Made by a program: the position numbers and the translations under genes. DNA of 64,000 nucleotides from an uncultured Acidobacteriota bacterium (GTDB lineage Bacteria; Acidobacteriota; Thermoanaerobaculia; Multivoradales; UBA5704), in NCBI GenBank assembly GCA_963770895.1, contig CAVYRF010000002.1, forward strand, positions 3,008,001 to 3,072,000. The letters are read 5' to 3'. Positions 23,665 through 45,846 of this stretch are shown piece by piece; within the stretch, counting starts at the first letter, position 1; every line of letters starts with the position of its first letter. The notes under the pieces were generated by a model that was not told the DNA's origin, ran no database searches, and saw only the letters and a list, made by a program, of their open reading frames with translations.

Positions 23665-25461
23665 CTAGCTGGCGAGGGTGGCGCCGAGATAGCCTTCGCG
23701 CTCCAGGTACAGCAGGATCTCCTGGGCCGACTGCTCGGGGGAGAGGCTGCCGGCGTCGAGCGTCAGCTCGGCGTCCACCGGCGCCTCGTAGGGGTCGGAG
23801 ATGCCGGTGAACTCCTTGAGGATGCCGGCGCGGGCCTTGGCGTACAGCCCCTTGCGGTCGCGTTGCTCGCAGACGTCGATCGACGTCGCCACGTGCACCA
23901 GCATGAAGCCGCCGCCGGGCTCGACCATCGACCGCACCTCCTTGCGCACCGCGTCGTAGGGGGCGATGGGGGCGCACAGCGCGATGCCGCCGTTGCGGGT
24001 GATCTCGGCGGCGACGAAGCCGATGCGCCGGATGTTGATGTCGCGGTGCTCCTTCGAGAAGTTGAGCTCGGAGGAGAGGTTCTTGCGCACGATGTCGCCG
24101 TCGAGCAGCGTCACCGGCCGGCCTCCCATCTCCATCAGCTTGATCTGCAGGGCGTTGGCGATGGTCGATTTGCCGGCGCCCGACAGGCCGGTGAGGAAGA
24201 TGGTGAAACCCTGCCGCGCGCGCGGCGGGTGGGTGCGGCGCAGCTCGTCGGCCACCTCGGGGAAGGTGAACCAGCCGGGCAGGTCGCTGCCCTCGGCGAG
24301 GCGGCGGCGCAGCTCGGTGCCCGAGATGTCGAGCGTCCGTCTGCCCTCCGGCACTTCGTCCACCGGCAGGTAGGTATCCATGTCCTCGACGTAGACCAGC
24401 TGCTTGAACGGCACCATCTGCACGCCCAGCTCCCCTTCGTGGGCGCGCAGCAGCTCCTGCGCGTCGTACGGGCCGTAGAACGGCTTGCCGGACGAATCGG
24501 CGCCCGGTCCGGCGTGGTCGCGGCCGACGATGAAGTGGGTGCAGCCGTGGTTCTTGCGGATGATGGCGTGCAGCAGCGCTTCGCGCGGGCCGCCCATGCG
24601 CATGGCGAGGCCGAGCAGGGCGAGCTTCGCGGTGTGCTGCGGGAAGCGGTGCAGGATCGCCTGGTAGCAGCGCACGCGGGTGTAGTGATCCAGGTCGCGC
24701 GGCTTGGTCATGCCGACGGTGGGATGGATCAGCAGGTTGGCGCGCGCCTCCTTGGCCGCGGCCAGCGTCAGCTCGCAGTGGGCGCGGTGCATCGGGTTGC
24801 GGGTCTGGAACGCCACCACCCGCCGCCAGCCTTCGCGCGCCATCTCGGCGCGCAGCTCGGCGGGCGTCAGGCGCAGCGGGCGAAAGTCGTAGTGGACCGG
24901 CGCCTGCACGCCTTCCAGGCGGCCGGCGACAAACACCGGGTGGGTGCGGTCCAGCTGGTAGGCGACGCCGGGATGCTTCTTGTTGGTGGTGCCGAACACG
25001 GCCTTGGCGCTGGCCGCCAGGTCGGGCTCCCACATCTCGTCGACGTGCAGGGCGGCGAGCATGACGCCTTCGGCGTCGCGCAGGGCCAGCACTGAGCGCC
25101 CGACGTGCAGCGTCGCGGCCAGCTCGCGCGGGATGTCCAGGGTGATCGGGATCGGCCACAGCGTGCCGTTGGCCAGCCGCATGCCGGCGCAGACCGCGTC
25201 GTGGTCGGCCTGGCCCAGGAAGCCGGTGAGCGGCGAAAAGCTGCCGTCCAGCAGCAGCTCCAGGTCGCAGATCTGCCGCGGCGTCAGGTCCCAGGACGGC
25301 CAGTCGCGGGACGCTGCCTTCAGCTCGGCGGCGCGCTGCGGCTCCGCCATCAGGTTGACCAACGTGCCGCCGTGCGGCTCGATCAAGGCATCGGCGCCGC
25401 TCTCTCTGGGGTCGGCCGGGGCGCCGGAAGGAAACGCAAGGGTATTTTTCATTGAGTCCAT
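23665..25461 (-). CDS. sat: Bifunctional sulfate adenylyltransferase / adenylylsulfate kinase (PAPS synthesis)
   Basis: PHGG; AFQTRNPMHRAH; GPREA; GRDHAG; C-terminal APS kinase GLSGAGKST, LLDGD, FTGISDPYE. Confidence 0.95.
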   Translation of the reverse strand: MDSMKNTLAFPSGAPADPRESGADALIEPHGGTLVNLMAEPQRAAELKAASRDWPSWDLTPRQICDLELLLDGSFSPLTGFLGQADHDAVCAGMRLANGTLWPIPITLDIPRELAATLHVGRSVLALRDAEGVMLAALHVDEMWEPDLAASAKAVFGTTNKKHPGVAYQLDRTHPVFVAGRLEGVQAPVHYDFRPLRLTPAELRAEMAREGWRRVVAFQTRNPMHRAHCELTLAAAKEARANLLIHPTVGMTKPRDLDHYTRVRCYQAILHRFPQHTAKLALLGLAMRMGGPREALLHAIIRKNHGCTHFIVGRDHAGPGADSSGKPFYGPYDAQELLRAHEGELGVQMVPFKQLVYVEDMDTYLPVDEVPEGRRTLDISGTELRRRLAEGSDLPGWFTFPEVADELRRTHPPRARQGFTIFLTGLSGAGKSTIANALQIKLMEMGGRPVTLLDGDIVRKNLSSELNFSKEHRDINIRRIGFVAAEITRNGGIALCAPIAPYDAVRKEVRSMVEPGGGFMLVHVATSIDVCEQRDRKGLYAKARAGILKEFTGISDPYEAPVDAELTLDAGSLSPEQSAQEILLYLEREGYLGATLAS

Positions 25462-28899: not shown

Positions 28900-31467
28900 T
28901 CAGGCGGCCGAGCCGGCTTGCGTCGTCGCGGGCTGATCGGCGGCGACGTAGCTCTCGTAGGAGCGGTAGCGCTTGCCGAGCCCGGAGTGGGAGGACCGAT
29001 AGCGGTTGAGCACGGCTCCCAGGATCCGCACGTCGGCCTGGCGCAGGCGGTCGCGGCACAGGCGGGCCTCTTCGCGCGTCACCTTGCCGCTGCGCAGCGT
29101 CAGCACCACGCCGTCGGCCATCACGCCGACGATGGTGGCGTCGGTGACCGCGAGAGCCGGCGGGGTGTCGATGATGACGTACTCGAAATGGCTGCGCACG
29201 GTGTGCAGCCACTCCTTCATGCGGTCCGATGACAGCAGCTCCGAGGGGTTGGGGGCGATCGGTCCGGACGGGATCACCCACAGGTGCGGAATGGCGGAGC
29301 GCTGGACGATTTCGTCGGCGCCCATGCCCGCGGTCAGGTGGCTCACCAGGCCGATCTGGTTGGACAGGCGGAAGACCTGGTGCAGGCGGGGCTTGCGCAG
29401 GTCCGCGTCGACGATCAGCACCGGCCGCCCCAGCTGCGCCAGGACGATCGCCAGGTTGGTGGCGGTCGCCGTCTTGCCCTCGCCGGCGGTGGCGGAGGTG
29501 ACCGCCACCACTTTCAGCTCGCGGGCGCTGGACAGCAGCATCGCGGTGCGCAGCGAGCGGTAGGCTTCCGAGATCTGGGTGCGCGGCAGCTCGTGCGGCA
29601 CCAGCTCGATCTGCGTCGGCGCCGCCTGCCGGTTGGCGGCGCCGCGCTTCCTGTCCAGGCGCTCGCTGCCGTCGGCGGCAGTCCCCACGGCGGGCGGCGG
29701 GCCGGCCGGTTGCGCCGCGGCAGCCGCGGCGCCGGCGCCGCGGGTTTCGCGCCCCGCCCGGCCGGCGCGGGTGGCCGGCAGCGGCGGCGCCGCGGGCGCG
29801 CCGGTGGTCGCCGGCGACTGGAAGTAGCCGGACCCCGAGCCGTACCCGTAGCCGTAGCCGTAGCGCTCGCCATAGCCGTAGGACTTGCCGGCTTCGACGA
29901 TGTCCTGGATGACCGCCAGCGTCGGCAGGCCCAGGCGCCGTTCCACTTCGTCGGGGGTCTTGATGGTGCGGTCGAGGAATTCGATGAGCAGCGCCGAGCC
30001 GACGCCCAGCAGCAGGCCGAACAGCAGGCCGTAGGAGACGTCGCGGCGCAGCGACGGATAGAACGGTCCGCCCGGCACCAGGGCGCGATCGACGATGTGG
30101 ATGTTCGAGTCGCGGGTGTCCTGCAGGCGCGCCTGCACCTCGTTTTCGGAATGCTTGTGCTGCAGCTCGTTGAGCGTGTCGGTGCGGGCTTTGATCTCGT
30201 TGACCAGGCTGTTGTATTCGACCGCCACGGTATTCTGATCCATCGCCTGCGACTTGATCTTGTTGATCTCTGTTTCCAGCGCCTGCTCCTGGGCCAGCGC
30301 CGTCAGGTAGGCGGTGTGGGCGCTCTTGCGCGCGTTGGCGACCATCTCACCGACCACCGCGGTGATGTGCTGCTTGTTCTTTTCGATCTCGGTATGCAGC
30401 GACTGCATCGCCGGCCACTCGGGCTTGTAGGTTTTGAGCTTGGTGTCGTAGTCGCGCTCCAGCTTGAGCTGGTCGGCGCGCAGGCTGGAGATGACTCCCG
30501 GTTGCAGGGCGTCCGCCACGCTGTCGTCGGGCGCCGTCATCAGGCCGTGATAGGTCGCCTCTTTGTCGATGCGGGTGTTCTTGGCGTCCATGTAGCTGCC
30601 GTTGAGCGATTGCAGCCGCTGCATGGTGACGTTGGCGCCGGGCTCCATGGTCACGATGTCGGTGCGGCGGCTGTACGCCTGCAGCTTCGCTTCCTTGTCG
30701 CCGATCTCCTTTTGCAGCGCCTCGATCTGCGAGCTGAGAAACGTCGAGGTCTTGCCGGCGCTGTTGAAGCGGTACTCGATCCCCATGTCGATGAAGGCGT
30801 CCGCAAAACCGTTGGCGGCGCGGGCGGCGAACAGGGGCGAGGAGGCGTGATACGAGATCTCCACCAGCTGGGTGTTGCGCACCGGCTCGACCGAGAGCCC
30901 CGACCGCAGCCGCTCGGCAAGCCCGCCCAGGGTCGTCAGGTCGTCGTCGGCGGTCGGCGCATGGTTGTCGGCGCCGACGGCGCCAACGGCGCCGGGTGCA
31001 CCGCCTGCAGTGGGCGCGCCGCCGAGCGGCGACCGCGACGCGAGCTGCGCCAGCGACGCGCTGACGCCGCCGCCGGAGCGGCCGGGATTGAACACCGGGT
31101 CGGACGCCAGGTCCAGGCGCTTGACCACCCGCTCGGCCAGACCGCGGCTTTCCAGCAGCGCGTACTGGGTGGGGTAGTACTCGGCGTCAAAGTAGCTTTC
31201 CAGCCAGGGTGCCTGGCTGGTCAGCGTCGGCGCCAGGGTGCGGCGCTCGATCTGGATGATCGCCGTCGCCACGTAGGCCTTGGGAGTGATGGCGTAATGG
31301 ATGGCCCCGCCGATCACCGCGATCAGGCAGGCGGCCGCCACCAGCTTCCAGTGGCGCCGCACCATCGCCAGGTATTCGGCCAGGTTGAATTCTGATTCGG
31401 GCTCGGGCGCCGCGACCTCGTCGTCGAGGGCCGGCAGGGCCGCGACAGCCATGGCGGTTTTCTTCAA
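28900..31467 (-). CDS. wzc: Wzc-type polysaccharide co-polymerase / tyrosine autokinase
   Basis: Two TMs flanking a coiled-coil periplasmic region; EAYRSLRT; GEGKT; IVDADLRKP; IIDTPP. Start could be ATG 31452. Confidence 0.93.
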   Translation of the reverse strand: MKKTAMAVAALPALDDEVAAPEPESEFNLAEYLAMVRRHWKLVAAACLIAVIGGAIHYAITPKAYVATAIIQIERRTLAPTLTSQAPWLESYFDAEYYPTQYALLESRGLAERVVKRLDLASDPVFNPGRSGGGVSASLAQLASRSPLGGAPTAGGAPGAVGAVGADNHAPTADDDLTTLGGLAERLRSGLSVEPVRNTQLVEISYHASSPLFAARAANGFADAFIDMGIEYRFNSAGKTSTFLSSQIEALQKEIGDKEAKLQAYSRRTDIVTMEPGANVTMQRLQSLNGSYMDAKNTRIDKEATYHGLMTAPDDSVADALQPGVISSLRADQLKLERDYDTKLKTYKPEWPAMQSLHTEIEKNKQHITAVVGEMVANARKSAHTAYLTALAQEQALETEINKIKSQAMDQNTVAVEYNSLVNEIKARTDTLNELQHKHSENEVQARLQDTRDSNIHIVDRALVPGGPFYPSLRRDVSYGLLFGLLLGVGSALLIEFLDRTIKTPDEVERRLGLPTLAVIQDIVEAGKSYGYGERYGYGYGYGSGSGYFQSPATTGAPAAPPLPATRAGRAGRETRGAGAAAAAAQPAGPPPAVGTAADGSERLDRKRGAANRQAAPTQIELVPHELPRTQISEAYRSLRTAMLLSSARELKVVAVTSATAGEGKTATATNLAIVLAQLGRPVLIVDADLRKPRLHQVFRLSNQIGLVSHLTAGMGADEIVQRSAIPHLWVIPSGPIAPNPSELLSSDRMKEWLHTVRSHFEYVIIDTPPALAVTDATIVGVMADGVVLTLRSGKVTREEARLCRDRLRQADVRILGAVLNRYRSSHSGLGKRYRSYESYVAADQPATTQAGSAA

Positions 31468-32345
31468 AAGAAGGACTCCTTGACGACCACGATGTCGCCC
31501 TGGCGCAGCTCGACGTCGGGGTCCTTGCCGGCCAGGATGCGGTTGTAGTCCACCTCAAGCTCGGGTGCACCGGCGGCCGCGTCGGAGCGCTTGACGCGCA
31601 GCTTGTGCGAGGCGCGGTCGGTGAGGCCGCCGGCACGCGCGATGACGGCCAGCACAGTGATGCGGTCGGTGCTCTTGAAGGGCACCGCTCCGGGGTGGTT
31701 CACCGCCCCCAGGCAGTACAGGGTGATCTCCACCGCGTTGGGTACGTTGATCAGGTCGTTGGCGACCAGCGGGATGTTGACCCGCGGATCGGCGCGCACC
31801 AGCAGGTCGTCGAGCGAAATGGTCACCTGGTCGGACAGGCCGTCGTCGGCGCGGCGCAGGACGTACAGGACGTTGCCGCGGTTCTCGGCCACGCCGCCCG
31901 CGGCGGTGAGCGCTTCGAGCAGCGTCCAGCGCCCCGAAAAGGCAAGGCTGCCGGGCAGCTTGACCGCGCCGATGACCGAGATCGGCCGCGATTTGAATTC
32001 CTGCACTTCCACCGCGACGGTGGCGCGCTGCGCGTATTTGGCTTCCAGCAGGAGCTTGAGCTTTTCGCCGACTTCCGTTTCGGTGAGGCCGGCGACCGCC
32101 AGGTCGGGCAGCGGCGCCATGCTGATCGAGCCGTCTTCGGAAACCCTGCGGGTGCCGTTGAGCTCGGGCATTTCGAACACCTTGATGTCAAGCAGGTCGC
32201 GCGGACCGACGCGATAGCCCGGCCGGCTTGGTTCGCCGGGCGCGGACGTTCCCGCCGCAGGTTGAGGGGGCACCTGCGCTCCGGCCAACCCTCCCAGGGA
32301 AAGCAGCCCGGCAAACGCCCATAAGAATAAGTCTATCTTCTTCAC
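31464..32345 (-). CDS. wza: Wza-like polysaccharide export protein (Poly_export + SLBB)
   Basis: YRVGPRDLLDIKVF; VIGAVKLPG; TLLEALTAAGG; LRQGDIVVVKESFF. Confidence 0.88.
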   Translation of the reverse strand: MKKIDLFLWAFAGLLSLGGLAGAQVPPQPAAGTSAPGEPSRPGYRVGPRDLLDIKVFEMPELNGTRRVSEDGSISMAPLPDLAVAGLTETEVGEKLKLLLEAKYAQRATVAVEVQEFKSRPISVIGAVKLPGSLAFSGRWTLLEALTAAGGVAENRGNVLYVLRRADDGLSDQVTISLDDLLVRADPRVNIPLVANDLINVPNAVEITLYCLGAVNHPGAVPFKSTDRITVLAVIARAGGLTDRASHKLRVKRSDAAAGAPELEVDYNRILAGKDPDVELRQGDIVVVKESFF

Positions 32346-32498: not shown

Positions 32499-33809
32499 CT
32501 ACGGCTCCACTGCGTTGGGCGGCCGGCCGGCGGCGAGGTTGAGGTTGAGGCCCAGGGTGTTGATCGAGCGTGCCAGGCCCGGCAGGTTGGAGGTAAAGCG
32601 CGTGCTCGAACCGACCAGGCTGACCACGGCGCCGCGCGCCACGTCGAAGGACAGCGCGCCGCCGAACGACACCAGGTCGTCGTGCCGCTCCGGCGTGCCG
32701 GTGGCGCCGGCGATTTGGGTATAGCCCAGGCTGCCGGTCTCACCGAAGCCGCTGACCTTGGCGCGGGCGCCCAGCTTGACGTGCAGCGCCACGCCGTGGC
32801 GCAGGTCGTCGAAGTAGGAATAGTCGGGCAGCAGCGAATAGACCAGGTTGCGGTTGGCGTAGACGAAGACTTCGGTCGCCGGAGTGATCTCGTAGGAGAC
32901 CGTGATGTGGCCGGTGGTCTTGTCGTAATGGGCGAACGACGACCCCTGCGTCGCCGACAGCGACCGCTGGGCCAGGTCGACCTCGAAGAACAGGCGCCCG
33001 TGCTCGCGCGACAGCTCCAGCACCGGCGCCGTGCCGGAGTTGGAGCGGTTGGGGACGCCGGGCAGGTGGTCGTCAAAGGTGACGTCGGAATGCTCGGCGC
33101 CGGCGCCCACCAGCCAGCCGGGGGCCGGCCGCCAGCGCAGCCCGGCGCGCTCGACGCGCTCCTCGTGGTTGAGCTCGTCGAGCTCTACGGCGGTGGGGTC
33201 GTCGGCGCTGGCGAGGTTGGTCTGGCGGGTGATCTCGCCGCTGACGAAGGGCGACAGGGTGGACGTCGCCGCCACCTCGACGGTGGCCGCGACGTGGTCG
33301 ATGCGGGCGCTGGTCAGGGTGGGCAGCTCGGCGGTGAGGATCTGCTGCTGCGTGTCGCTGCCGGCCGTGAGCCGCAGCGTCAGGCGGTTGAAAAAGCCGT
33401 CGAAGCCGGCGCCGTACAGGCCGTCGAAGCGCCGCCGGTCGCTCTCTTTCTGCCACCAGACGTACTCGGGCAGAGCGTAGGCGGTCCACATCGCCTTGCT
33501 GCCGGCGGGCAGGTAGAAGCGCGCGCCGCCGGCGACGGTGGCGGTGAAGTCGGTGGGGTTCGCGTCGCCCGCCGAGCCCAGCAGGTTCTTGACGTAATCG
33601 ACGTCCTTGAGCTCGAACGCCGGCGCGATCTTGAGCGCGCCCAGGCTGAAGCGGGCGCTCTGGGCTTCCTTTTCCAGCTCGCCCTTGCGATCGATCGGGC
33701 GCCCCTCGGGGCCGCCGGGGGTCGTATACTCGGTGAATTGAGCCCAGGCGGAGCTGGCGACGAACAGCGACAGGAGGGTTGCACTGCAAGACCGGGTGAG
33801 CCGCCGCAT
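32499..33809 (-). CDS. Outer-membrane beta-barrel protein associated with EPS export
   Basis: Signal peptide ending SAWA-Q; alternating amphipathic beta strands; directly upstream of wza. Confidence 0.7.
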   Translation of the reverse strand: MRRLTRSCSATLLSLFVASSAWAQFTEYTTPGGPEGRPIDRKGELEKEAQSARFSLGALKIAPAFELKDVDYVKNLLGSAGDANPTDFTATVAGGARFYLPAGSKAMWTAYALPEYVWWQKESDRRRFDGLYGAGFDGFFNRLTLRLTAGSDTQQQILTAELPTLTSARIDHVAATVEVAATSTLSPFVSGEITRQTNLASADDPTAVELDELNHEERVERAGLRWRPAPGWLVGAGAEHSDVTFDDHLPGVPNRSNSGTAPVLELSREHGRLFFEVDLAQRSLSATQGSSFAHYDKTTGHITVSYEITPATEVFVYANRNLVYSLLPDYSYFDDLRHGVALHVKLGARAKVSGFGETGSLGYTQIAGATGTPERHDDLVSFGGALSFDVARGAVVSLVGSSTRFTSNLPGLARSINTLGLNLNLAAGRPPNAVEP

Positions 33810-33865
33810 AGTCTCTCCGTGCAGCAGAGCGTTGGATTGATGCCGGACCAAGGGAAAGCGGCGCC

Positions 33866-37104: not shown

Positions 37105-38451
37105 ATGCTCATGGCGATGTCCGGCCGCGGAGTGCGCTTCGATCCTCCCGCGCTGCCGCTGACGCCGGCGGTGCGCTGGATGCTGCTGCGCGCCTTCGGG
37201 CCGCCGGGCGCCGCCCTGGGTGCGGTGGGAGCGGTTGGGGCAGCGGGCGCGGCAGGTGCAGCGGGTGGGGCGGCGCCGCCGGCGGTGGCGCCCGCGGCGG
37301 CGCTGGCGCTCAGCCGGCGCTTCGACCTTGCGGCGCGCATCGCGGCGCGCCAGGGGCGGGCGCGGCTGGCGGCGGAGCTGGGCGAAACCGCGGTGGTGGA
37401 AGGCTTCGTGCACGACCGCGCGGCGGCGGCCGCGGCAACGCTGCGCGCCATGGCGCTGGTCGAGCAGGTGGCGGCGGCGGCGGCGGCGCGGCAGATTCCG
37501 GTGGTGTTCCTCAAGCTGGCGGCCCTGGAGCTGCTGGGCGTGCTGGCGCCGGGCAGCCGGGCGGGTTGCGACCTGGACGTGCTGGCGCCGGCGGAGCGGG
37601 CCGGCGAGCTGCTGCAGGCGCTGGTCGAGCGCGGCTTTCGCGCCTCGCCGCTGCCCGAGCAGGAGCACCAGCTGGCCGCCCTGGAGGGGCCGGACGGAGT
37701 TGTCGAGGTGCACCGGATGCTGCTCGGCGTGCGCCTCGATGGCCGGCCCGACCAGCCTGACCAGCGCCCCGGGCAAACCCGGCAACCCCGGCGACGCGCG
37801 CGATCAGCGCGGTGGGCCGACTTGCAGCGAGCGGGCCTGCTGACCGCGCTGCCGCGGCTGCCGGGCGCCGCGGCGGTGCCGGTGCCGGCGGTGGCCGCGG
37901 CGCATGCGCTGGTGCACGGCATCGCCCAGCACGGCTGGGCGCCGGGCTCGTATTCGCTGCTCAGGATGGTCGGCGACCTGATCGACCTGGGCTTTGCCGA
38001 GTCCCGTCCGCTCGCCGCGAGCGTCGCCGCATGGGTCGCCGGCGACGTGACGCCGGTGGAGGTGGAGGCGGCGCGGCGCTTGGCGGCGGAGCTGGCGGCG
38101 GGTGCGTGGGAGGATTCGCGGGCGCCCGAGGCGGTGCTGCTGCGGCACGCCCTGGCCGGCCGTCTGGACCCGGAATACCAGCGCTCGCTGCGCCTGGCGC
38201 TGTTCCGCCGGCAGCCGAGCGACCTGCCGCAGGCGCTGCGGCTGGCGCGGGCGGTCGCCGGCACCGTGTGGCTCAGCCGCGCGCGGGTGGACGCGATCTA
38301 CGGGCCGCCGCGCCACCGCCTGGGCTACCTGGGCCGCCGGCTGCTGCGACCGCTCGACCTGCTGGCCCGGCTCGCCAGCTCCGCCCGCCAGGCCTGGCGC
38401 GTCCGCCGCCGCCCGGCCGGGAACGCGGGCGGCGGCGGCACGGCGCCGTAG
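37105..38451 (+). CDS. Nucleotidyltransferase family protein (NTP_transf_5-like, as in RiPP clusters)
   Basis: IPVVFLKLAAL; R..CDLDVL; VEVH; HALVH; LRMVGDLIDL. Confidence 0.75.
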   Translation: MLMAMSGRGVRFDPPALPLTPAVRWMLLRAFGPPGAALGAVGAVGAAGAAGAAGGAAPPAVAPAAALALSRRFDLAARIAARQGRARLAAELGETAVVEGFVHDRAAAAAATLRAMALVEQVAAAAAARQIPVVFLKLAALELLGVLAPGSRAGCDLDVLAPAERAGELLQALVERGFRASPLPEQEHQLAALEGPDGVVEVHRMLLGVRLDGRPDQPDQRPGQTRQPRRRARSARWADLQRAGLLTALPRLPGAAAVPVPAVAAAHALVHGIAQHGWAPGSYSLLRMVGDLIDLGFAESRPLAASVAAWVAGDVTPVEVEAARRLAAELAAGAWEDSRAPEAVLLRHALAGRLDPEYQRSLRLALFRRQPSDLPQALRLARAVAGTVWLSRARVDAIYGPPRHRLGYLGRRLLRPLDLLARLASSARQAWRVRRRPAGNAGGGGTAP

Positions 38452-38769: not shown

Positions 38770-40275
38770 GTGAGCAAGCCCCGATCCAACCGCGGCCGGC
38801 GCCCCCCCGCCGCCGCCGGTCCCGCCGCCTCGGCGTCGAGGCGCCGCCAGACGGTGGCCGGCGCCGTCGCCGCGATGCCCGCGGTGCCCTGGAAGGCGCT
38901 GGCGCCGACCGGAAAGGCGGCGGTGGCGCTGCTCTGGCTGCTGGTGCTGGTGCCCGCCTGGTGGTATTCGCCGGCGGCCAAGGATGCGTTCCGGTTGCCC
39001 AAGCTGATGCTGGCCGAGTGGCTGGGCCTTGCGTCGCTTTTGCCGCTGGCCTGGCAGCTGTCGCGCGTGCCGCGGATCGGGTGGCGCGACCTGTGGCGAT
39101 GGCCGGCGGTGCGCGCCGTGGTGCCGCTCCTGGCGATCGCGACCCTGGGGCTGGCGACCAGCGCCCACGCCCTGCACGTGCGGCAGGGGCTGATCGACCT
39201 TTGGATCGGCGCGGCGTGCCTGGTGGGGTGGAGCGTGGCGCTGCCGGCCGGCCGGCTGGGACGCCTGCTCGGCCTGCTGCTGGTGCCCGCGATCGCCCTG
39301 GCCGTGCTGGGCATCCTGCAGTTCCACGGCGTGCTGCACGCGCCGGTCGGCGGCATGCACGGGACGGCGCCGCGCTTCAGCGTGATCTCGCGGGCAGGCA
39401 ATCCTGGCGACCTGGGCGCTTTCCTGGTGCTCCCCTGCCTGGTCGCGCAGTGGCTGCTGGCGCGGGCGCCGCGGCGGCGGGGGTGGCTGCTGGCGGCGCT
39501 GGCGATCTGTGCCTACGGCGTGGCGATCACCCAGACGGTCGCCGCGCTGTCGGCGCTGCTGGTCGGCAGCCTGGTGCTGTGGGGCGCCGCCCTGGGACGC
39601 GGCGTCGCCGCCGGCCAGCGCGCCAGGATCGCCGGGGCCGTGGTGGCGCTCGGCCTGGTCGCCGCCCTGGCCGCCGCCGCGGTGCCGGCGCTGCGCCAGC
39701 GCGTGGCGGACAAGCTGGCCGCGGCGCGGCACGGAGACTGGAACGACGTGCTGACCGGGCGGGTGGACGGTTGGCGGGCGGCCCTGTGGATGCTCGGCCA
39801 GCACCCCTGGAGCGGGGTCGGCCAGGGCGCTTTCCGCGCCGAGTTCGCGCCCGCCAAGCTGGCCCTGCTGGACCGCGGCGCCAGGCCGTTCTACTCGGGC
39901 CAGCAGCAGAGCTTCGTCAACGCCCACGACGAGGCGCTGGAGGTTGGCGCCGACCTGGGCTGGCCGGGCCTGGTCGCGCTCGCCTGGGCGCTCTGGGTCC
40001 TGGCGGCGGCGGTGCGTGCCGGCGATGCCCGCGATGCCAGCAATGGGGGCGATGGCGGTGTCGAGCGGTCCGACCCCACGGCTGGCCAGGCGCCCGGCGA
40101 GCGGGCGGCGCGGGCGGATGCCGCCCTGGCCATGGCGGGGACGGCGGCGCTCGGCGTGCTGGCGCTGGTCGACTTCCCGTTCCGCATCGCGCTGGTGGCG
40201 TTCCCGGCCCTGCTGCTCCTCGCCTGGGTGCTGGCGCGGGCCGGCGCCGCCGTCGCGGCGGAGGGTGGCGCGTGA
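38770..40275 (+). CDS. O-antigen ligase (Wzy_C) family membrane protein
   Basis: DAFRLPK; GNPGDLG; GR...W; GVGQGAF; NAHDEALE; FPFR. Confidence 0.85.
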   Translation: MSKPRSNRGRRPPAAAGPAASASRRRQTVAGAVAAMPAVPWKALAPTGKAAVALLWLLVLVPAWWYSPAAKDAFRLPKLMLAEWLGLASLLPLAWQLSRVPRIGWRDLWRWPAVRAVVPLLAIATLGLATSAHALHVRQGLIDLWIGAACLVGWSVALPAGRLGRLLGLLLVPAIALAVLGILQFHGVLHAPVGGMHGTAPRFSVISRAGNPGDLGAFLVLPCLVAQWLLARAPRRRGWLLAALAICAYGVAITQTVAALSALLVGSLVLWGAALGRGVAAGQRARIAGAVVALGLVAALAAAAVPALRQRVADKLAAARHGDWNDVLTGRVDGWRAALWMLGQHPWSGVGQGAFRAEFAPAKLALLDRGARPFYSGQQQSFVNAHDEALEVGADLGWPGLVALAWALWVLAAAVRAGDARDASNGGDGGVERSDPTAGQAPGERAARADAALAMAGTAALGVLALVDFPFRIALVAFPALLLLAWVLARAGAAVAAEGGA

Positions 40276-40724
40276 AGGGGCGGCCGCTGGCGGTGGCGTT
40301 GATCGTCGTGCTGGCGGTGGCGCTCGGCGCCCAGAGCGTGCGCTGGCGCGACCGGCTGCTGGCCAGCGAGCTGGTCAACGAGGTGGAGGTGATCTCGGTC
40401 AGCGCCGCCACCCGCGGCTCGGCGACGCTCGAGCGGGTGCTGCCCGGCGTGCTGGCGGCGTTGCGGCGCGCCGGCGACGCCGATCCGCTGGACGTGGAGG
40501 TGCCGCTGGCGCGCGGCTCGCTGTACTACCTGCTGCGGCGTCCCGACGAGGCGATCGCCAGCTACCAGAGCGCCGCGGAGCTGGAACCGCACGCCGAGAT
40601 CCTGCTGCACCTGGGCGACGCCCTGCTCGCCGCCGGGCGCCAGGACGAAGCCCGCCGCAGCTATCGCGACGCGCTTCGCCTGGCCCCCTGGCTGTGGCCG
40701 CTGGTGCCTGCCGGGGAGCGGTAG
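40272..40724 (+). CDS. Membrane-anchored TPR protein
   Basis: GTGA-coupled to ligase; N-terminal TM; TPRs (RGSLYYLL..PDEAIASY, HLGDALLAAG..DEARRSY..AL). Confidence 0.75.
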   Translation: MKGRPLAVALIVVLAVALGAQSVRWRDRLLASELVNEVEVISVSAATRGSATLERVLPGVLAALRRAGDADPLDVEVPLARGSLYYLLRRPDEAIASYQSAAELEPHAEILLHLGDALLAAGRQDEARRSYRDALRLAPWLWPLVPAGER

Positions 40725-40758
40725 CGTCCCGCTCGCCGCCCCCCGGCAAGCGACCTGG

Positions 40759-40947
40759 CTACCAGGGCGACGGCTCAGGGTCCGACAGGTGCCATGGCAC
40801 CGGGGGCGGATTGGAGGTCTTCCAGGGCGAGGGTTCGGGATTGAGCCGGATCGGCCCGATCGGCAGCCACGGCGACGGCTGAGGGCCGCTGCCGCGGACG
40901 GCGCGCAGCGCCTGGCCGGGCGCTGTCGAACGGTGAATCTTCTTCAT
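40759..40947 (-). CDS. Putative multi-core precursor peptide with four PxPxPW repeats (62 aa)
   Basis: RBS aaaaggag; MKKIHRSTAPGQALRAVRGS-GPQPSPW-LPIGPIRL-NPEPSPW-KTS-NPPPVPW-HLS-DPEPSPW. Confidence 0.72.
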   Translation of the reverse strand: MKKIHRSTAPGQALRAVRGSGPQPSPWLPIGPIRLNPEPSPWKTSNPPPVPWHLSDPEPSPW

Positions 40948-41087
40948 TGCGTCTCCTTTTCCTGAAGTACGGCACACAAGATAGAAGCATGTGCATTTGA
41001 GCGCGCAATGCGTGACCGCGCTCCCGCGAGACGTCCCCCCTGCTTCTGGTAGCATGGCGGCGGCAGCCATGCCTGCCTGGCCGGGCC

Positions 41088-41525
41088 ATGACCCCTTCCT
41101 CCAACCAAACCGCCGCGGATGACCCCGGCACGCGCGTCGCGGCGGCGTTGCGCGACATGGCGCGCCAGCAGCCGATCGTGCTGGCCGTCAGCGGCGACTG
41201 CATGGCGCCGGTGCTGCGCCACGGCGACCGCGTGCAGGTGGCGCCGGCGCGCCGCTACTGGCCGGGCGACATCGTGGCGCTGCCGACGGCGCAGGGGCGG
41301 GTGGCGGTGCACCGGTTGCTCGGCTACCGGCTGGCCGCGGGGCGCTGGCTGTGCGTGACGCGCGGCGACCTGTGCGCCAGCCCCGACGCGCCGCTGCCGG
41401 CGCGGCTGCTGCTGGGGCGGGCCAGCGTGCGCCCGTCGCTCGCCGCGCGGGTCCGGGCCGTCGCGGCGTTCGCCGCTCTCGCGTTTGCCGCCGCCCGGCG
41501 CCGGGCGGCGGGTCGCCCGGCGTGA
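41088..41525 (+). CDS. S24/S26 family peptidase-like protein
   Basis: VSGDCMAPVLRHGDRV (GxSM-like with Cys at the nucleophile position); GDIV; HR; TRGD. Confidence 0.75.
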   Translation: MTPSSNQTAADDPGTRVAAALRDMARQQPIVLAVSGDCMAPVLRHGDRVQVAPARRYWPGDIVALPTAQGRVAVHRLLGYRLAAGRWLCVTRGDLCASPDAPLPARLLLGRASVRPSLAARVRAVAAFAALAFAAARRRAAGRPA

Positions 41526-42445
41526 GCTTCGGCGCCAAATACCTGCGGCGTCCCGATCGCTTCCCGCACGTCGAGGACAGCGAGCCGTGGGGCGAATGCC
41601 AGGTGGCGCTCGACCTGCCGGGCGGTCCCTACCACTTCACCGGTCTTTCGGCGGCGCAGCTGGATGGCGTGCGGGCGGCGTTCCCCGGCGCCGTCGCGGC
41701 GGGTGCTGCCGCCGGCGCGACGGCCCCCTGCCGGCTGCTGCGTGCCGCCGCCGGCGACTTCCTGCCGGTCGACACGCGCGGCTGGGAGTACGCCATGGAT
41801 GCCGACTGGCAGCCCCAGGCGGTGCGGTTCGCGGGGCTGGGGCTGCTGGCGCGGCTGGATTGGAAGCCGGGCTTGACGGGCGGCGCGCTGTGGACCTGCG
41901 AGGACGGCGGCGCGCGCTTTCCGGGCGTGTTCGAAAACTTCCTGCGCATCCTGGTCGCCTACCGCCTGGTGGAGATCGGCGGTGTCGTGCTGCACAGCGC
42001 GGGGGTGGTCAAGAACGGCGCGGCGTTCCTGTTTCTGGGGCGCTCCGGCGCCGGCAAGACCACCATTTCGCGGCTCAGCCTGGCGCGCGGCGGCGAGGTG
42101 CTGAGCGACGACCTCAACGCCCTGTTCCCCGCCCCCGGCGGCTGCGAGGTGCGCCAGCTGCCCTTCACCGGCGACCTGGGGGAGCGCGGCGCGGTGCGGC
42201 GGGCGGTGCCCCTGGGCGCGCTGGTGCGGCTCGAGCAGGACACCCTGGACGCGGTGTCGCCGCTGCCGCGGGCGCGCGCGCTGGCCTGCCTGCTGGCCTG
42301 CTCGCCGTTCGTCAACGTCGATCCCTACCGGCGCGATCGCCTGGAGGGAGCCCTGCTCGCCCTGCTCGCCGCCGCCCGCCGCCCGGCGCTCGCGCTGCGC
42401 TTCTCGTTGGGCGGTGGCTTCTGGTCTATAATCGACGCAAAATGA
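41522..42445 (+). CDS. HPr-kinase-related P-loop protein
   Basis: LHSAGVV..GAAFLFLGRSGAGKTT; VLSDDL; PFTG; GTGA-coupled. Confidence 0.75.
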   Translation: MSFGAKYLRRPDRFPHVEDSEPWGECQVALDLPGGPYHFTGLSAAQLDGVRAAFPGAVAAGAAAGATAPCRLLRAAAGDFLPVDTRGWEYAMDADWQPQAVRFAGLGLLARLDWKPGLTGGALWTCEDGGARFPGVFENFLRILVAYRLVEIGGVVLHSAGVVKNGAAFLFLGRSGAGKTTISRLSLARGGEVLSDDLNALFPAPGGCEVRQLPFTGDLGERGAVRRAVPLGALVRLEQDTLDAVSPLPRARALACLLACSPFVNVDPYRRDRLEGALLALLAAARRPALALRFSLGGGFWSIIDAK

Positions 42446-42819
42446 AGCAGATCGAAGGTTTAGGCTTGCAACCCGACAGCGTTCTCCAGCGCTCGGGCGA
42501 TGTGCGCTTTCGCGTCGTCGACGACGAAGGGGTGGTGGTGCGCCAGGCGGCGGGCGAAGTGCTGGTGCTCAACGCCATGGCAACCCGCATCCTGGCCCTT
42601 GCCGACGGCGTCGCGCCGGTCGACGCGTGGGTCCAGGCCCTGCTCGCCGAGTACGACGTGGACCGTCAGGTGCTGCAACGGGACGTGCTCGCCTTTGCCG
42701 CGGAGCTGCTGGAGGAGGGCATGCTGGAACCCGCCGCCGCCCCCGCCAGCCCGCCGCCTGCGACAATGGCGACGGCGCCCGGTGCCGGGGCAGGCCCGAC
42801 GCATAAGGACGGCGCATGA
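42442..42819 (+). CDS. PqqD-family RiPP recognition element
   Basis: FRVVDDEGVVV..VLNAMATRIL.LADG..LLAEYDVD..LQRDV..F..EL...GML; ATGA-coupled on both sides. Confidence 0.9.
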   Translation: MKQIEGLGLQPDSVLQRSGDVRFRVVDDEGVVVRQAAGEVLVLNAMATRILALADGVAPVDAWVQALLAEYDVDRQVLQRDVLAFAAELLEEGMLEPAAAPASPPPATMATAPGAGAGPTHKDGA

Positions 42820-43949
42820 GCTTTCAAGACGTGCTGCAGCGCACCTGGACCGGCAACCACCTGTTTTCGGTTCTGGTGGAGCTGACCTATCGCTGCAACC
42901 TCGACTGCTTCTTCTGCTACAACGACCTGGCACAGCGCGGCAAGCCGCTGTCGGCGGCACAATATTGCTCATTCTTCGCCGACCTGCGCGATCTGCAGGT
43001 GCTCAACCTCACCCTCACCGGCGGTGAGCCGCTGGCGCATCCGGACTTTCTACAGCTGGGCGCCAAGGCGCGCGAGCTGGGCTTCGTGGTGCGCATCAAG
43101 TCGAACGGTCATTCGCTGCGCGGCGCCATGGCGCGCCGCATCCGCGACCAGGTCGATCCCTTTCTGATCGAAGTCAGCCTGCATGGCGCGACGGCGGCGA
43201 CGCACGACCGCCAGACGCGGGTGCCGGGGAGCTTCGATCGATTGCTGGCCAACCTGCGCGCGGCGCGGCGCCTGGGGCTGCGCCTCAAGATCAACTCCAC
43301 GATGACGGCGTGGAACGAGCACGAAGTCGAAGGCATGCTGGCGCTGGCCGACGATCTGGGGCTGCCGCTGCAAATAGATCCCGAGGTGACGCAGCGCGAC
43401 GACGGCGGCCGCGAGCCGCTGGCGATCACCGCGTCCCACGCCGGCGTGCAGCGCCTGTTCGAGCTGCTGGCGGCCAGGGCCGAGGGCGCCGCGGTCCAGG
43501 ACGCCTCCGGCGCAACGTCCCCCGCGCCCAGGCCGGCGGGCGCTCCGGTCGAGCTCATGCGCCAGGCCGACGACGGGTTGCCGACGGGCGGGGTCGACAA
43601 GCACTGCGGCGCCGGTTCCTCGGGCATCGCCGTCGATCCGTTCGGCAACGTCTACCCCTGCGTGCAGTGGCGGCGGCCGGTCGGCAATCTCCATGAGCGC
43701 TCGATCCGCGACATCTGGGCCAGCTCAGCCGGCCTGGACCAGGTGCGCGCCTTGACGGTTGCCGCCAAGCAGCGGGTCGACGAATTTGGCGAGGGGGGGG
43801 CGCTGCTGGCGTTCTGTCCGGGCAACGCCGCGGCGTTGACCGGCGATCCGCTGCAAATCTATCCGGGGGCGCTGCGCCGGATGGAGATCGCCTCCGCGGC
43901 GCAACAGGCGATCAAAGCCAGACGGGCGCTGCTGCCGATCCTGCGCTGA
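42816..43949 (+). CDS. Radical SAM protein with SPASM/Twitch-type C-terminal domain
   Basis: CNLDCFFC; LTGGEP; SNG; CGAG..AVDPFGNVYPC; GNL; FCPG. Confidence 0.93.
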   Translation: MSFQDVLQRTWTGNHLFSVLVELTYRCNLDCFFCYNDLAQRGKPLSAAQYCSFFADLRDLQVLNLTLTGGEPLAHPDFLQLGAKARELGFVVRIKSNGHSLRGAMARRIRDQVDPFLIEVSLHGATAATHDRQTRVPGSFDRLLANLRAARRLGLRLKINSTMTAWNEHEVEGMLALADDLGLPLQIDPEVTQRDDGGREPLAITASHAGVQRLFELLAARAEGAAVQDASGATSPAPRPAGAPVELMRQADDGLPTGGVDKHCGAGSSGIAVDPFGNVYPCVQWRRPVGNLHERSIRDIWASSAGLDQVRALTVAAKQRVDEFGEGGALLAFCPGNAAALTGDPLQIYPGALRRMEIASAAQQAIKARRALLPILR

Positions 43950-43981: not shown

Positions 43982-44158
43982 TCAGGACGAAATAGGGCCG
44001 GTGGGGCAGTGGCCGCGGTCCGCCTTGGCCGGCGGCGACGGGCTGCAGATGGACGCCATGGCCTCCAACGGCTCGCGAAACAGGATGCGCGGCGGAGCAT
44101 AGGGACGGCGCGCGCTGGTCCCGTCGGTCTCCGCTGCCGGGTGCTGTCTGGAGATCAT
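43982..44158 (-). CDS. Putative RiPP precursor with YxxP leader (58 aa)
   Basis: Purine-rich RBS aaggggaag; MISRQHPAAETDGTSARRPYAPPRILFREPLEAMASICSPSPPAKADRGHCPTGPISS; adjacent to rSAM/PqqD. Confidence 0.78.
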   Translation of the reverse strand: MISRQHPAAETDGTSARRPYAPPRILFREPLEAMASICSPSPPAKADRGHCPTGPISS

Positions 44159-44433: not shown

Positions 44434-45846
44434 TCAGACGCCGCGCGACGACAGGACGATCCGCACCGTGCGCAGCAAGATCGAAAGGTCGAGCCATAGC
44501 GTCCAATTGGCGGCGTACGCCAGGTCGTAGCGCAGCTTGTTCTGCGGGCTTGAGTGGTATTCGCCGTTGACCTGCGCCAGACCGGTGAGCCCCGGCGCGA
44601 GCGAAAAGCGCTCGGCGTAGCCGGGGATCTCCTTGACATAGCGCTGCACGAACCCGGGCCGCTCGGGGCGCGGCCCCACCAGGCTCATGCTGCCCGCCAG
44701 GACGTTCCACAGCTGCGGGATCTCGTCCAGGCGGAAGCGCCGCAACAAGGCGCCGCAGGGGGTGAGCCGCGGATCGCCGGGTTGCGCCAGCACCTCGCCG
44801 GAGTCGGCTTCGGCGTCGATGCGCATCGTCCGCAGCTTGAGCAGGGTGAAGGGGCGCTGGCCGCGGCCGACACGCACCTGGGCGTACACCACCGGCCCCG
44901 GCGAGGTGAGCCGCACCGCCAGCGCACAGGCGGCCAGCACGGGGACGGCGGCGGCCAGCAGCAACCCCCCCGCCGTCAGGTCGAGCAGGCGCTTGAGCGG
45001 CCAGTTGATCCGCCACTCCGATTCGCGCACCACCTCGATCAGCGGCAGGTCGTGCACCCAGCGGTAGCGCATGCGGCCGATGAGGCTTTCGAAGGGCCCC
45101 GGCAGCAGCAATACGTTGGTGTGATCGGGCCGCGTTCCGGCCAGGGCGTCGATCAGCCGCGTCTGCCACGAGTCGCCGCTGTCGGCAAGGATGATGTCTT
45201 CGACGATGCCCGCGGCCAGCAGGTTGGGCAGGTCGTCCGCCGTTCCCAAAAGCGGTCCCAGGGCAGGCTCGACGGGATCGACAGCGGCGCGAGCGGCCGC
45301 CGGCGGCTGGCCCGGCAGCGGCACGAAGCCGGCGACGGTGAGCCCGTGCCAGCGGTACTTGGCCAGGGTGCGGGCGATCTCGCCGGCCGCCTGCCCGTCG
45401 CCGACGATCGCGACCCGCCGTTCGCGCAGCTGGCTGCTGCGGTCGATGACGCTGCGCCAGAGCAACAGCGCCGCCAGGTCGAACAGCACGTACAGCAGCA
45501 GCACCGAGCGCGGGAAGCTGCGGAAGGTAAAAAAGAAGTAGCCGGTGAGCGCGGCGCCCTGGATCGCCGCGGCGCCGGCGAGCAGGCGCAGCGCCTCGGT
45601 GCGTGAGCGCGGGTGCGGCCTGTCGTAGAAACCGAAAAAGTAGAGGCTGGCGAACTGCGCCAGCAGCGCGACCCCCCAGTCGCGGCGCAGGAACAGCAAC
45701 CGGTCGCCGGGCAGCAGCCCGGCGGTGAACGGCAGCGGCAGGTGGATGCGGACCCAGAACGCGGCGCCAAACGCCGCGGCCGTGGCCGCCGCGTCGCCGA
45801 TCGCGCGCAGGACCTGCTTGCCGCGGCTTTCTCGCCGCAGGCTCAT
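44434..45846 (-). CDS. Priming undecaprenyl-phosphate sugar phosphotransferase (WcaJ/WbaP family)
   Basis: LKRLLD; KLRTM; DPRLT; RLDEIPQLWNVL.GSMSLVGPRPE; PGLTGLAQV. Confidence 0.95.
   Translation of the reverse strand: MSLRRESRGKQVLRAIGDAAATAAAFGAAFWVRIHLPLPFTAGLLPGDRLLFLRRDWGVALLAQFASLYFFGFYDRPHPRSRTEALRLLAGAAAIQGAALTGYFFFTFRSFPRSVLLLYVLFDLAALLLWRSVIDRSSQLRERRVAIVGDGQAAGEIARTLAKYRWHGLTVAGFVPLPGQPPAAARAAVDPVEPALGPLLGTADDLPNLLAAGIVEDIILADSGDSWQTRLIDALAGTRPDHTNVLLLPGPFESLIGRMRYRWVHDLPLIEVVRESEWRINWPLKRLLDLTAGGLLLAAAVPVLAACALAVRLTSPGPVVYAQVRVGRGQRPFTLLKLRTMRIDAEADSGEVLAQPGDPRLTPCGALLRRFRLDEIPQLWNVLAGSMSLVGPRPERPGFVQRYVKEIPGYAERFSLAPGLTGLAQVNGEYHSSPQNKLRYDLAYAANWTLWLDLSILLRTVRIVLSSRGV

Follow-up and report, generated by a model that had tools for sequence, protein, structure and literature searches.

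Small peptides that leave the cell through C39-ABC exporters, among them class II bacteriocins, pheromones of the ComC type and peptides of Gram-negative bacteria, carry a double-glycine leader, whose consensus has Gly-Gly at positions -2/-1 and hydrophobic residues at -4, -7 and -12. Other double-glycine peptides are RiPPs, with precursors scattered through the genome and enzymes encoded at unlinked sites. Repeated cores occur in the substrates of radical SAM enzymes, and the precursors of plant lyciumins hold several short cores, each ending in Trp, together with a fused BURP-domain enzyme. In lasso peptide clusters, homologues of HPr kinase transfer phosphate to the C-terminal Ser of the precursor, and an accompanying nucleotidyltransferase adds a hexose to that phosphate (PMC8498205). 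We compared with these systems a small gene found in a stretch of DNA of 64,000 nucleotides (the whole of which we call the window), whose product contains four proline-rich heptads that end in Trp. Our reading, to which we give a probability of about 0.6 on the basis of sequence comparison, is that the gene encodes a lineage-specific prepeptide with a double-glycine leader, belonging to a rare family that we call PxPxPW, exported by a C39-ABC transporter and not the substrate of the modification cassette next to it.

The gene is embedded in a large exopolysaccharide locus that takes up positions 1-46000 of the window and includes several GT4 glycosyltransferases, two Wzy-type ligases, an ATP sulfurylase/APS kinase for sulfate activation (23665-25461), a Wzz/BY-kinase (28900-31467), Wza (31464-32345), an EpsL-like outer-membrane protein (32499-33851) and a priming transferase (44434-45846); from its genes for sulfate activation, the polymer may be a sulfated one. 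On the + strand, a nucleotidyltransferase of the NTP_transf_5 type (37105..38451, part of the same conserved cluster), a Wzy-type ligase and a TPR protein (40272..40724) precede an operon of four genes in which stop codons overlap the following starts: an S24/S26-type peptidase (41088..41525), a HprK-like or ScmC-like P-loop kinase (41522..42445; start codon uncertain, with a 4-nt overlap with the S24 stop), a PqqD-family peptide-recognition protein, or RRE (42442..42819), and a radical SAM/SPASM enzyme (42816..43949). The kinase has 527 homologues at E<=1e-40, and it and all 120 of the homologues listed are annotated PF27840 in the protein database. A conserved 58-residue Cys-containing peptide (ORF58; 43982..44158, - strand) follows the operon. 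The PxPxPW gene (40759..40947, - strand; 62 codons plus a TAG stop) lies between the TPR gene, on which it converges, and the S24 gene, from which it diverges, with 140 nt between its ATG at 40947 and the S24 ATG at 41088. The first-pass annotation had placed it in an intergenic region shared with a peptidase-kinase-RRE-rSAM operon, and both the arrangement and the gene identities hold.

Translation of 40759-40947 (-) gives a peptide of 62 amino acids, and it bears out the earlier description of four (G/N/D)PxPxPW repeats in a protein that ends on the last Trp, the TAG stop being directly 3' of that Trp codon. Residues 1-20 (MKKIHRS...ALRAVRGS; 40888..40947, -) form a basic leader, which the family alignment assigns to the double-glycine type. 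Residues 21-62 (40762..40887, -) form a core of 42 residues that is 36% Pro, with a net charge of -1 and Trp at the C-terminus; its heptads GPQPSPW, NPEPSPW, NPPPVPW and DPEPSPW (40867-40887, 40822-40842, 40792-40812 and 40762-40782) keep Ser in three cases out of four. The Pro codons vary by heptad (CCT/CCG/CCG, CCC/CCC/CCC, CCG/CCC/CCG/CCA and CCT/CCG/CCC), as the earlier observation of differing codons between repeats had it. The strong ribosome-binding site claimed for the gene is also present, as AAGGAG 5 nt before the ATG (40953..40958, -), and the GC content at the three codon positions (0.65/0.65/0.85) is gene-like for a genome of 71% GC. In a six-frame scan of the 8.16-Mb genome, 723 matches to P.P.PW were found; this ORF is the only open frame that holds three or more of them, and the only other ORF in which they are sensibly clustered is a paralogue with two heptads, described below.

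Upstream of the gene is a GC-poor region (40948..41046; 56-59% GC) in which a promoter and terminator scan found no consensus sigma-70 promoter; a terminator-like match from the same scan falls inside the PxPxPW ORF on the wrong strand and was discarded. Between the convergent TPR and PxPxPW genes is an inverted repeat with 16-nt arms, 88% complementary, and a 14-nt loop (40706..40751), possibly a terminator working in both directions. Rfam gave no match over 40500-41300.

Natural variation at the locus was sought by aligning contigs from soil metagenomes to it, and one contig of 276 nt, from a different study, spans 40792-41030 with 14 differences from the window. Within the core there are three changes, all of them synonymous and at third positions of Pro codons, and none that is non-synonymous; within the leader there are three non-synonymous changes, one of which turns Gly-Ser into Gly-Gly; the ORF further has one in-frame 3-nt insertion, and AAGGAG is retained. 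Small as this sample is, its changes behave like those of a coding sequence with a constrained core. Taking together the ribosome-binding site, the gene-like third-position GC, the homologue family (below) and this core-constrained variant, we regard the ORF as a real, selected small gene. That it is instead a chance or decaying frame within inserted DNA, without function, is very improbable: the absence of the gene from all relatives searched would suit such a frame, but 26 credible family members keep the motif, the leader and the end point, the variant changes its core only synonymously and its length only in frame, and a paralogue has the same ribosome-binding site, in addition to the binding site and GC3 of the gene itself. 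A Pro/Trp-rich translational attenuator was considered too and rejected, because no co-directional gene lies downstream and secreted homologues exist.

Homologues were collected by a word-indexed search of 5.8 billion proteins, which returned four other homologue clusters, and by a HMMER search of 1.84 billion representatives with a six-sequence profile, which returned 26 matches at E<=1e-3. Two of the latter (P0059 and P0075) were set aside as repeat artefacts of large eukaryote-like proteins, and two further sequences (P0003 and P0005) were added, giving a credible set of 26 members. Each has between two and six heptads, so that homologues do keep the repeat, as the first-pass annotation would have them do; the residue before the first Pro of a heptad is mostly N, D or E, and Trp is the very last residue in 13 of the 26 members. 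Members with unrelated N-termini share heptads such as NPPPVPW, and the linkers between heptads are not conserved in the family alignment and hold no obvious cleavage signal. The N-termini themselves (assigned by eye and with a simple count of hydrophobic runs) fall into 15 double-glycine leaders, eight Sec-like or lipoprotein-like signals and three that are neither. Since eight members bear Sec-like or lipoprotein-like signals ahead of the same heptads, the repeat part would be expected to work outside the cytoplasm.

The earlier statement that the family is not a recognised one stands. No Pfam or NCBIfam model recognises it, the only matches being of single members at E about 0.1, and no paper describing it was found by a motif search of the searchable literature, which does not take in about 1.7 million PubMed Central articles. 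Searches of the ESM Atlas and of plasmids by tblastn gave no usable match. A scan of metagenome contigs matched at least seven loci, of which two, on contigs of 3.5 kb (L003) and 1.2 kb (L005), are real members, whose neighbours on these short contigs are limited to a gene resembling polysaccharide deacetylase, one for a stress protein and one resembling a kinase. Five others (L004 and L006-L009) are false relatives, namely tRNA-Gly(tcc) genes that yield ...NPQPSPW... when translated from the antisense strand; such antisense tRNA genes are a trap for motif searches of this family. The sole match of a scan of genome contigs (L002) was a chance match within a large gene on the opposite strand. 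By these comparisons the peptide belongs to what appears to be a rare, undescribed family of exported peptides.

How far the leader conforms to the double-glycine type can be judged from the 15 leaders that align. Positions -2/-1 are Gly-Gly in 13 of them, Gly-Ser in the window peptide and Ala-Gly in P0003; position -4 is Val in 13 and Ala in two; position -7 is Leu in 14 and Trp in one; and position -12 is hydrophobic (L, I, V or M) in 12, with Ala in the window peptide, which has Val at -4 and Leu at -7. The double-glycine-like leader proposed in the first-pass annotation is thus of that type by alignment, with the correction that this copy has Gly-Ser where most of the family has Gly-Gly, a departure that counts against our reading. 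So does the failure of curated double-glycine models on these leaders, where single members only are matched at E 0.09-0.14: TIGR01847 (bacteriocin_sig) and PF03047 (ComC) each match one of the 15 members, at E 0.14 and 0.13, and neither matches the window peptide.

Machinery for export is present in the genome, which has nine C39-domain matches, including a canonical protein with C39, ABC_membrane and ABC_tran domains on contig C1, beside an outer-membrane efflux protein. None of it is close to the peptide, which is a further point against our reading: a scan of 31 window ORFs found no C39 or ABC domain near the gene, and about 68 kb separate it from the nearest C39 match. Some 65-80 kb upstream of the peptide (L066, C2:2966000-2985000) are a LanC-like protein, a GAF-HlyD protein and a 1374-residue RHS-repeat protein with a weak C39 match, and there is a strong C39 match at C2:2972020. 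From the leader and the exporters we infer that an ABC exporter whose gene is at another site in the genome would remove the 20-residue leader, its C39 domain cutting behind Gly19-Ser20, and that a 42-residue, Pro-rich, slightly acidic peptide of four Trp-terminated heptads would be exported. Such a peptide would probably be extended rather than globular, with each heptad and the C-terminus presenting an invariant Trp, and it may act extracellularly, whether in signalling, in antagonism or by binding an envelope- or polysaccharide-related protein.

The six-frame scan identified the second copy of the family in the same genome, a paralogue of 54 amino acids at C2:5328957-5329121 (L001:9957-10121; - strand). 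It has AAGGAG, a leader that begins MKKI and ends in GG, and two EPEPNPW heptads, the last of which is the end of the protein. Genes flanking it encode an M20 peptidase, a TetR regulator, efflux proteins, a PKD protein and a secreted-looking protein, and no RiPP enzymes are near it. Similarity between the paralogue and window loci is confined to the ribosome-binding site and start region; a mobile element was rejected as an explanation, the two loci being without flanking repeats. Close relatives of the paralogue subtype (P0070, P0072, P0074 and P0078) occur in metagenomes.

These observations bear on the possibility that the family represents RiPPs, or multi-core peptides, of a new kind, with unlinked enzymes and with Trp-terminated heptads that are modified at Trp or Pro or are cut out. 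We consider this doubtful. The maintenance of heptads such as NPPPVPW behind quite different leaders, the 13 members that end on Trp, the conservation of leaders within subfamilies and the precedent of scattered double-glycine precursors would all agree with it, but no candidate enzyme lies beside either genome copy or on L003 and L005, versions with Sec or lipoprotein signals would bypass an enzyme that is guided by a leader in the cytoplasm, and the unconserved linkers offer no obvious site at which heptads would be released. The members with Sec or lipoprotein signals, together with the orphan paralogue, argue against an obligatory cytoplasmic, leader-guided modification. The neighbourhoods read were those of the two genome copies and of the two short metagenome contigs, and other members may have a dedicated modifying enzyme beside them, a point that weakens our own reading. 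An exported peptide with a double-glycine leader remains our preferred reading.

Comparison with relatives suggests how the gene came to be where it is. Genomes of the same genus and the same family keep the gene order of the cluster from the outer-membrane protein to MetF; in them the TPR gene directly precedes the S24 gene, the gap between the two is short and without a PxPxPW ORF, and none of the 13 syntenic loci has the peptide. In an alignment with four relatives of the same genus, the window genome has some 315 additional nucleotides (40725 to about 41040), a stretch that holds the hairpin, the ORF, its ribosome-binding site and the GC-poor upstream part. Roughly 30-60 nt before the S24 start is a TAnnAT element that is also present in relatives, so the S24 operon presumably keeps its own promoter. 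A profile HMM of the peptide found it in 1 of 92 family genomes, namely the window genome itself (0 of the 91 others), in 1 of 401 genomes of a class sample and in 1 of 401 of a phylum sample; these genome searches scored 16-149 candidates per genome, so that weak copies may escape them, and the two copies of the window genome were always recovered. No credible copy was found in 40 relatives, and two weak genome matches (G039, E 3.9e-5; G002, E 0.003) have no PxPxPW ORF inside them. The gene therefore looks like a recent, lineage-specific insertion beside a conserved cassette. The same gap is occupied in another genome of the family (G015; L045, 10400-15430) by a 5-kb module resembling that of a lasso peptide, with PqqD, Transglut_core3 (a transglutaminase-like protease), a P-loop protein, NTP_transf_5 and a 578-residue protein, and on the strength of this module, peptide-related genes seem to have an insertion hot spot in this gap.

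The cassette has a peptide of its own. ORF58 is found in all 13 relatives' loci, within a few hundred nucleotides of the radical SAM or PqqD gene in 11 of them, and two order-level relatives have it immediately upstream and in the same orientation. Its leader, RRPYxPPRILFREPLEAMA, is conserved behind a variable N-terminus, its core has two invariant Cys, and its last residue is Ser in every one of 20 sequences; the S24/S26 peptidase could cleave at the AMA that precedes the core. The peptide has 48 other clusters in the protein database and is present in 73 of 92 family genomes. The kinase, which matches strongly in 21 of 24 family genomes, is accompanied by ORF58 in every one of those 21 and in none of the three others. 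ORF58 travels with the S24 peptidase, HprK-like kinase, PqqD, radical SAM/SPASM and NTP_transf_5 genes inside the exopolysaccharide locus. Source names in the database records of this system are all 'hypothetical', some of them from Thermoanaerobaculia or Acidobacteria assemblies, and no paper on ORF58 or the cassette was found by name or motif in the searchable literature. The C-terminal Ser that HPr-kinase homologues modify (PMC8498205) fits ORF58 together with the kinase and NTP_transf_5 of this cluster, and is at odds with a peptide whose last residue is Trp. ORF58 is likely the cognate precursor of the S24/kinase/PqqD/radical SAM operon, and the cassette as a whole looks like an uncharacterised RiPP-like system.

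The first-pass annotation had proposed that the PxPxPW peptide is a multi-core RiPP precursor modified by this operon, perhaps by Trp cross-linking or Ser phosphorylation, which would now make it a second substrate after ORF58. Its position (divergent, with 140 nt between start codons), the Ser in three of its four heptads, the lasso-like RiPP module found in the same gap of G015 and the repeated cores known among radical SAM substrates speak for such a role, and the landing of an unrelated gene right beside a RiPP-type operon would be an unlikely coincidence, which also weighs against our own reading. We nevertheless consider the proposal quite unlikely. The operon is conserved without the peptide, which is lacking from each of the 91 other family genomes and each of the 13 syntenic loci; it already has a conserved precursor-like peptide in ORF58, whose leader motif has no counterpart in the PxPxPW leader; the family includes members with Sec or lipoprotein signals as well as an orphan paralogue; and the HPr-kinase homologues characterised in RiPP clusters need a C-terminal Ser (PMC8498205), where this peptide has Trp. 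No contig of 48,216 bp, the size of that of P0003, is among the 49 ORF58 matches or among the 120 listed of the 527 kinase matches, a slight hint that P0003, the closest homologue of the peptide, may not be beside such a cassette. Because relatives keep the cluster but lack the peptide, ORF58 is present and the kinase precedent points to ORF58, the adjacent operon is probably not the partner of the PxPxPW peptide, and the claim that it is a precursor for that operon is not upheld.

A wider proposal joins parts of these alternatives: (N/D/E)PxPxPW would be a new class of exported multi-unit peptides that use three export signals, each Trp-terminated heptad being a functional unit that is modified at Trp or Pro or released, and the window copy, inside an exopolysaccharide locus, would have been captured as a second substrate of the radical SAM/kinase cassette or be co-regulated with it. 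As a whole we think this unlikely. The prepeptide with a double-glycine leader, presumably exported and probably unconnected with the cassette, adds to the known small exported peptides a sparse family that is distinct in sequence and has no Pfam or NCBIfam model. The occurrence of the same Trp-terminated Pro heptads behind double-glycine, Sec and lipoprotein signals points to an extracellular function and makes the family a target for peptidomics. The locus further illustrates that adjacency to RiPP enzymes can mislead, comparative genomics having reassigned the cassette to the widely conserved ORF58.

Set against the described systems, the peptide is closest to the C39-ABC double-glycine peptides, with which it has in common a short leader, small size and an exporter in the genome. 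It differs from them in a core that is 26-37% Pro in 14 of 15 members (18% in P0067) and in having no exporter or immunity gene nearby, and from the cationic, amphipathic bacteriocins in particular in that the core is neutral to acidic, with two to four Trp-terminated heptads. The precursors of RRE-dependent radical SAM/SPASM enzymes (streptide, three-residue cyclophanes and PapA-type peptides) are similar in being small ORFs beside PqqD and radical SAM/SPASM genes with a repeated aromatic core motif, but the PxPxPW peptide does not co-occur with the enzymes, which have another conserved peptide, and its last Trp is C-terminal, with no partner residue downstream. The resemblance to plant lyciumin precursors lies in the multiple short cores that end in Trp; those precursors are eukaryotic, with another core motif and a BURP fusion, and no such enzyme was seen here. 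PEPxxWA-CTERM or PEP-CTERM proteins (NF035944) are similar in that heptads of the family such as PEPSPW and PEPNPWA match PEPxxW(A), and that the gene has a place in an exopolysaccharide locus of the kind found with exosortase systems, whereas the peptide lacks a transmembrane helix or basic tail after the motif; a PEP-CTERM decoy was rejected, NF035944 having a match in a single one of the 15 members (E 8.7) and none in the genome, where there is one weak exosortase match. The phosphorylated and phosphoglycosylated lasso peptides (paeninodin and pseudomycoidin), which have an HPr-kinase homologue and a nucleotidyltransferase, are resembled by the surrounding cluster in its HprK-like kinase, PqqD and NTP_transf_5, but those kinases act on a C-terminal Ser (PMC8498205), as in ORF58 and not in the PxPxPW peptide, and no lasso cyclase or B2 protease was found in the window. 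On this comparison we judge the peptide to be a rare variant of the exported peptides with double-glycine leaders, apparently inserted beside a RiPP-like cassette that has its own precursor.
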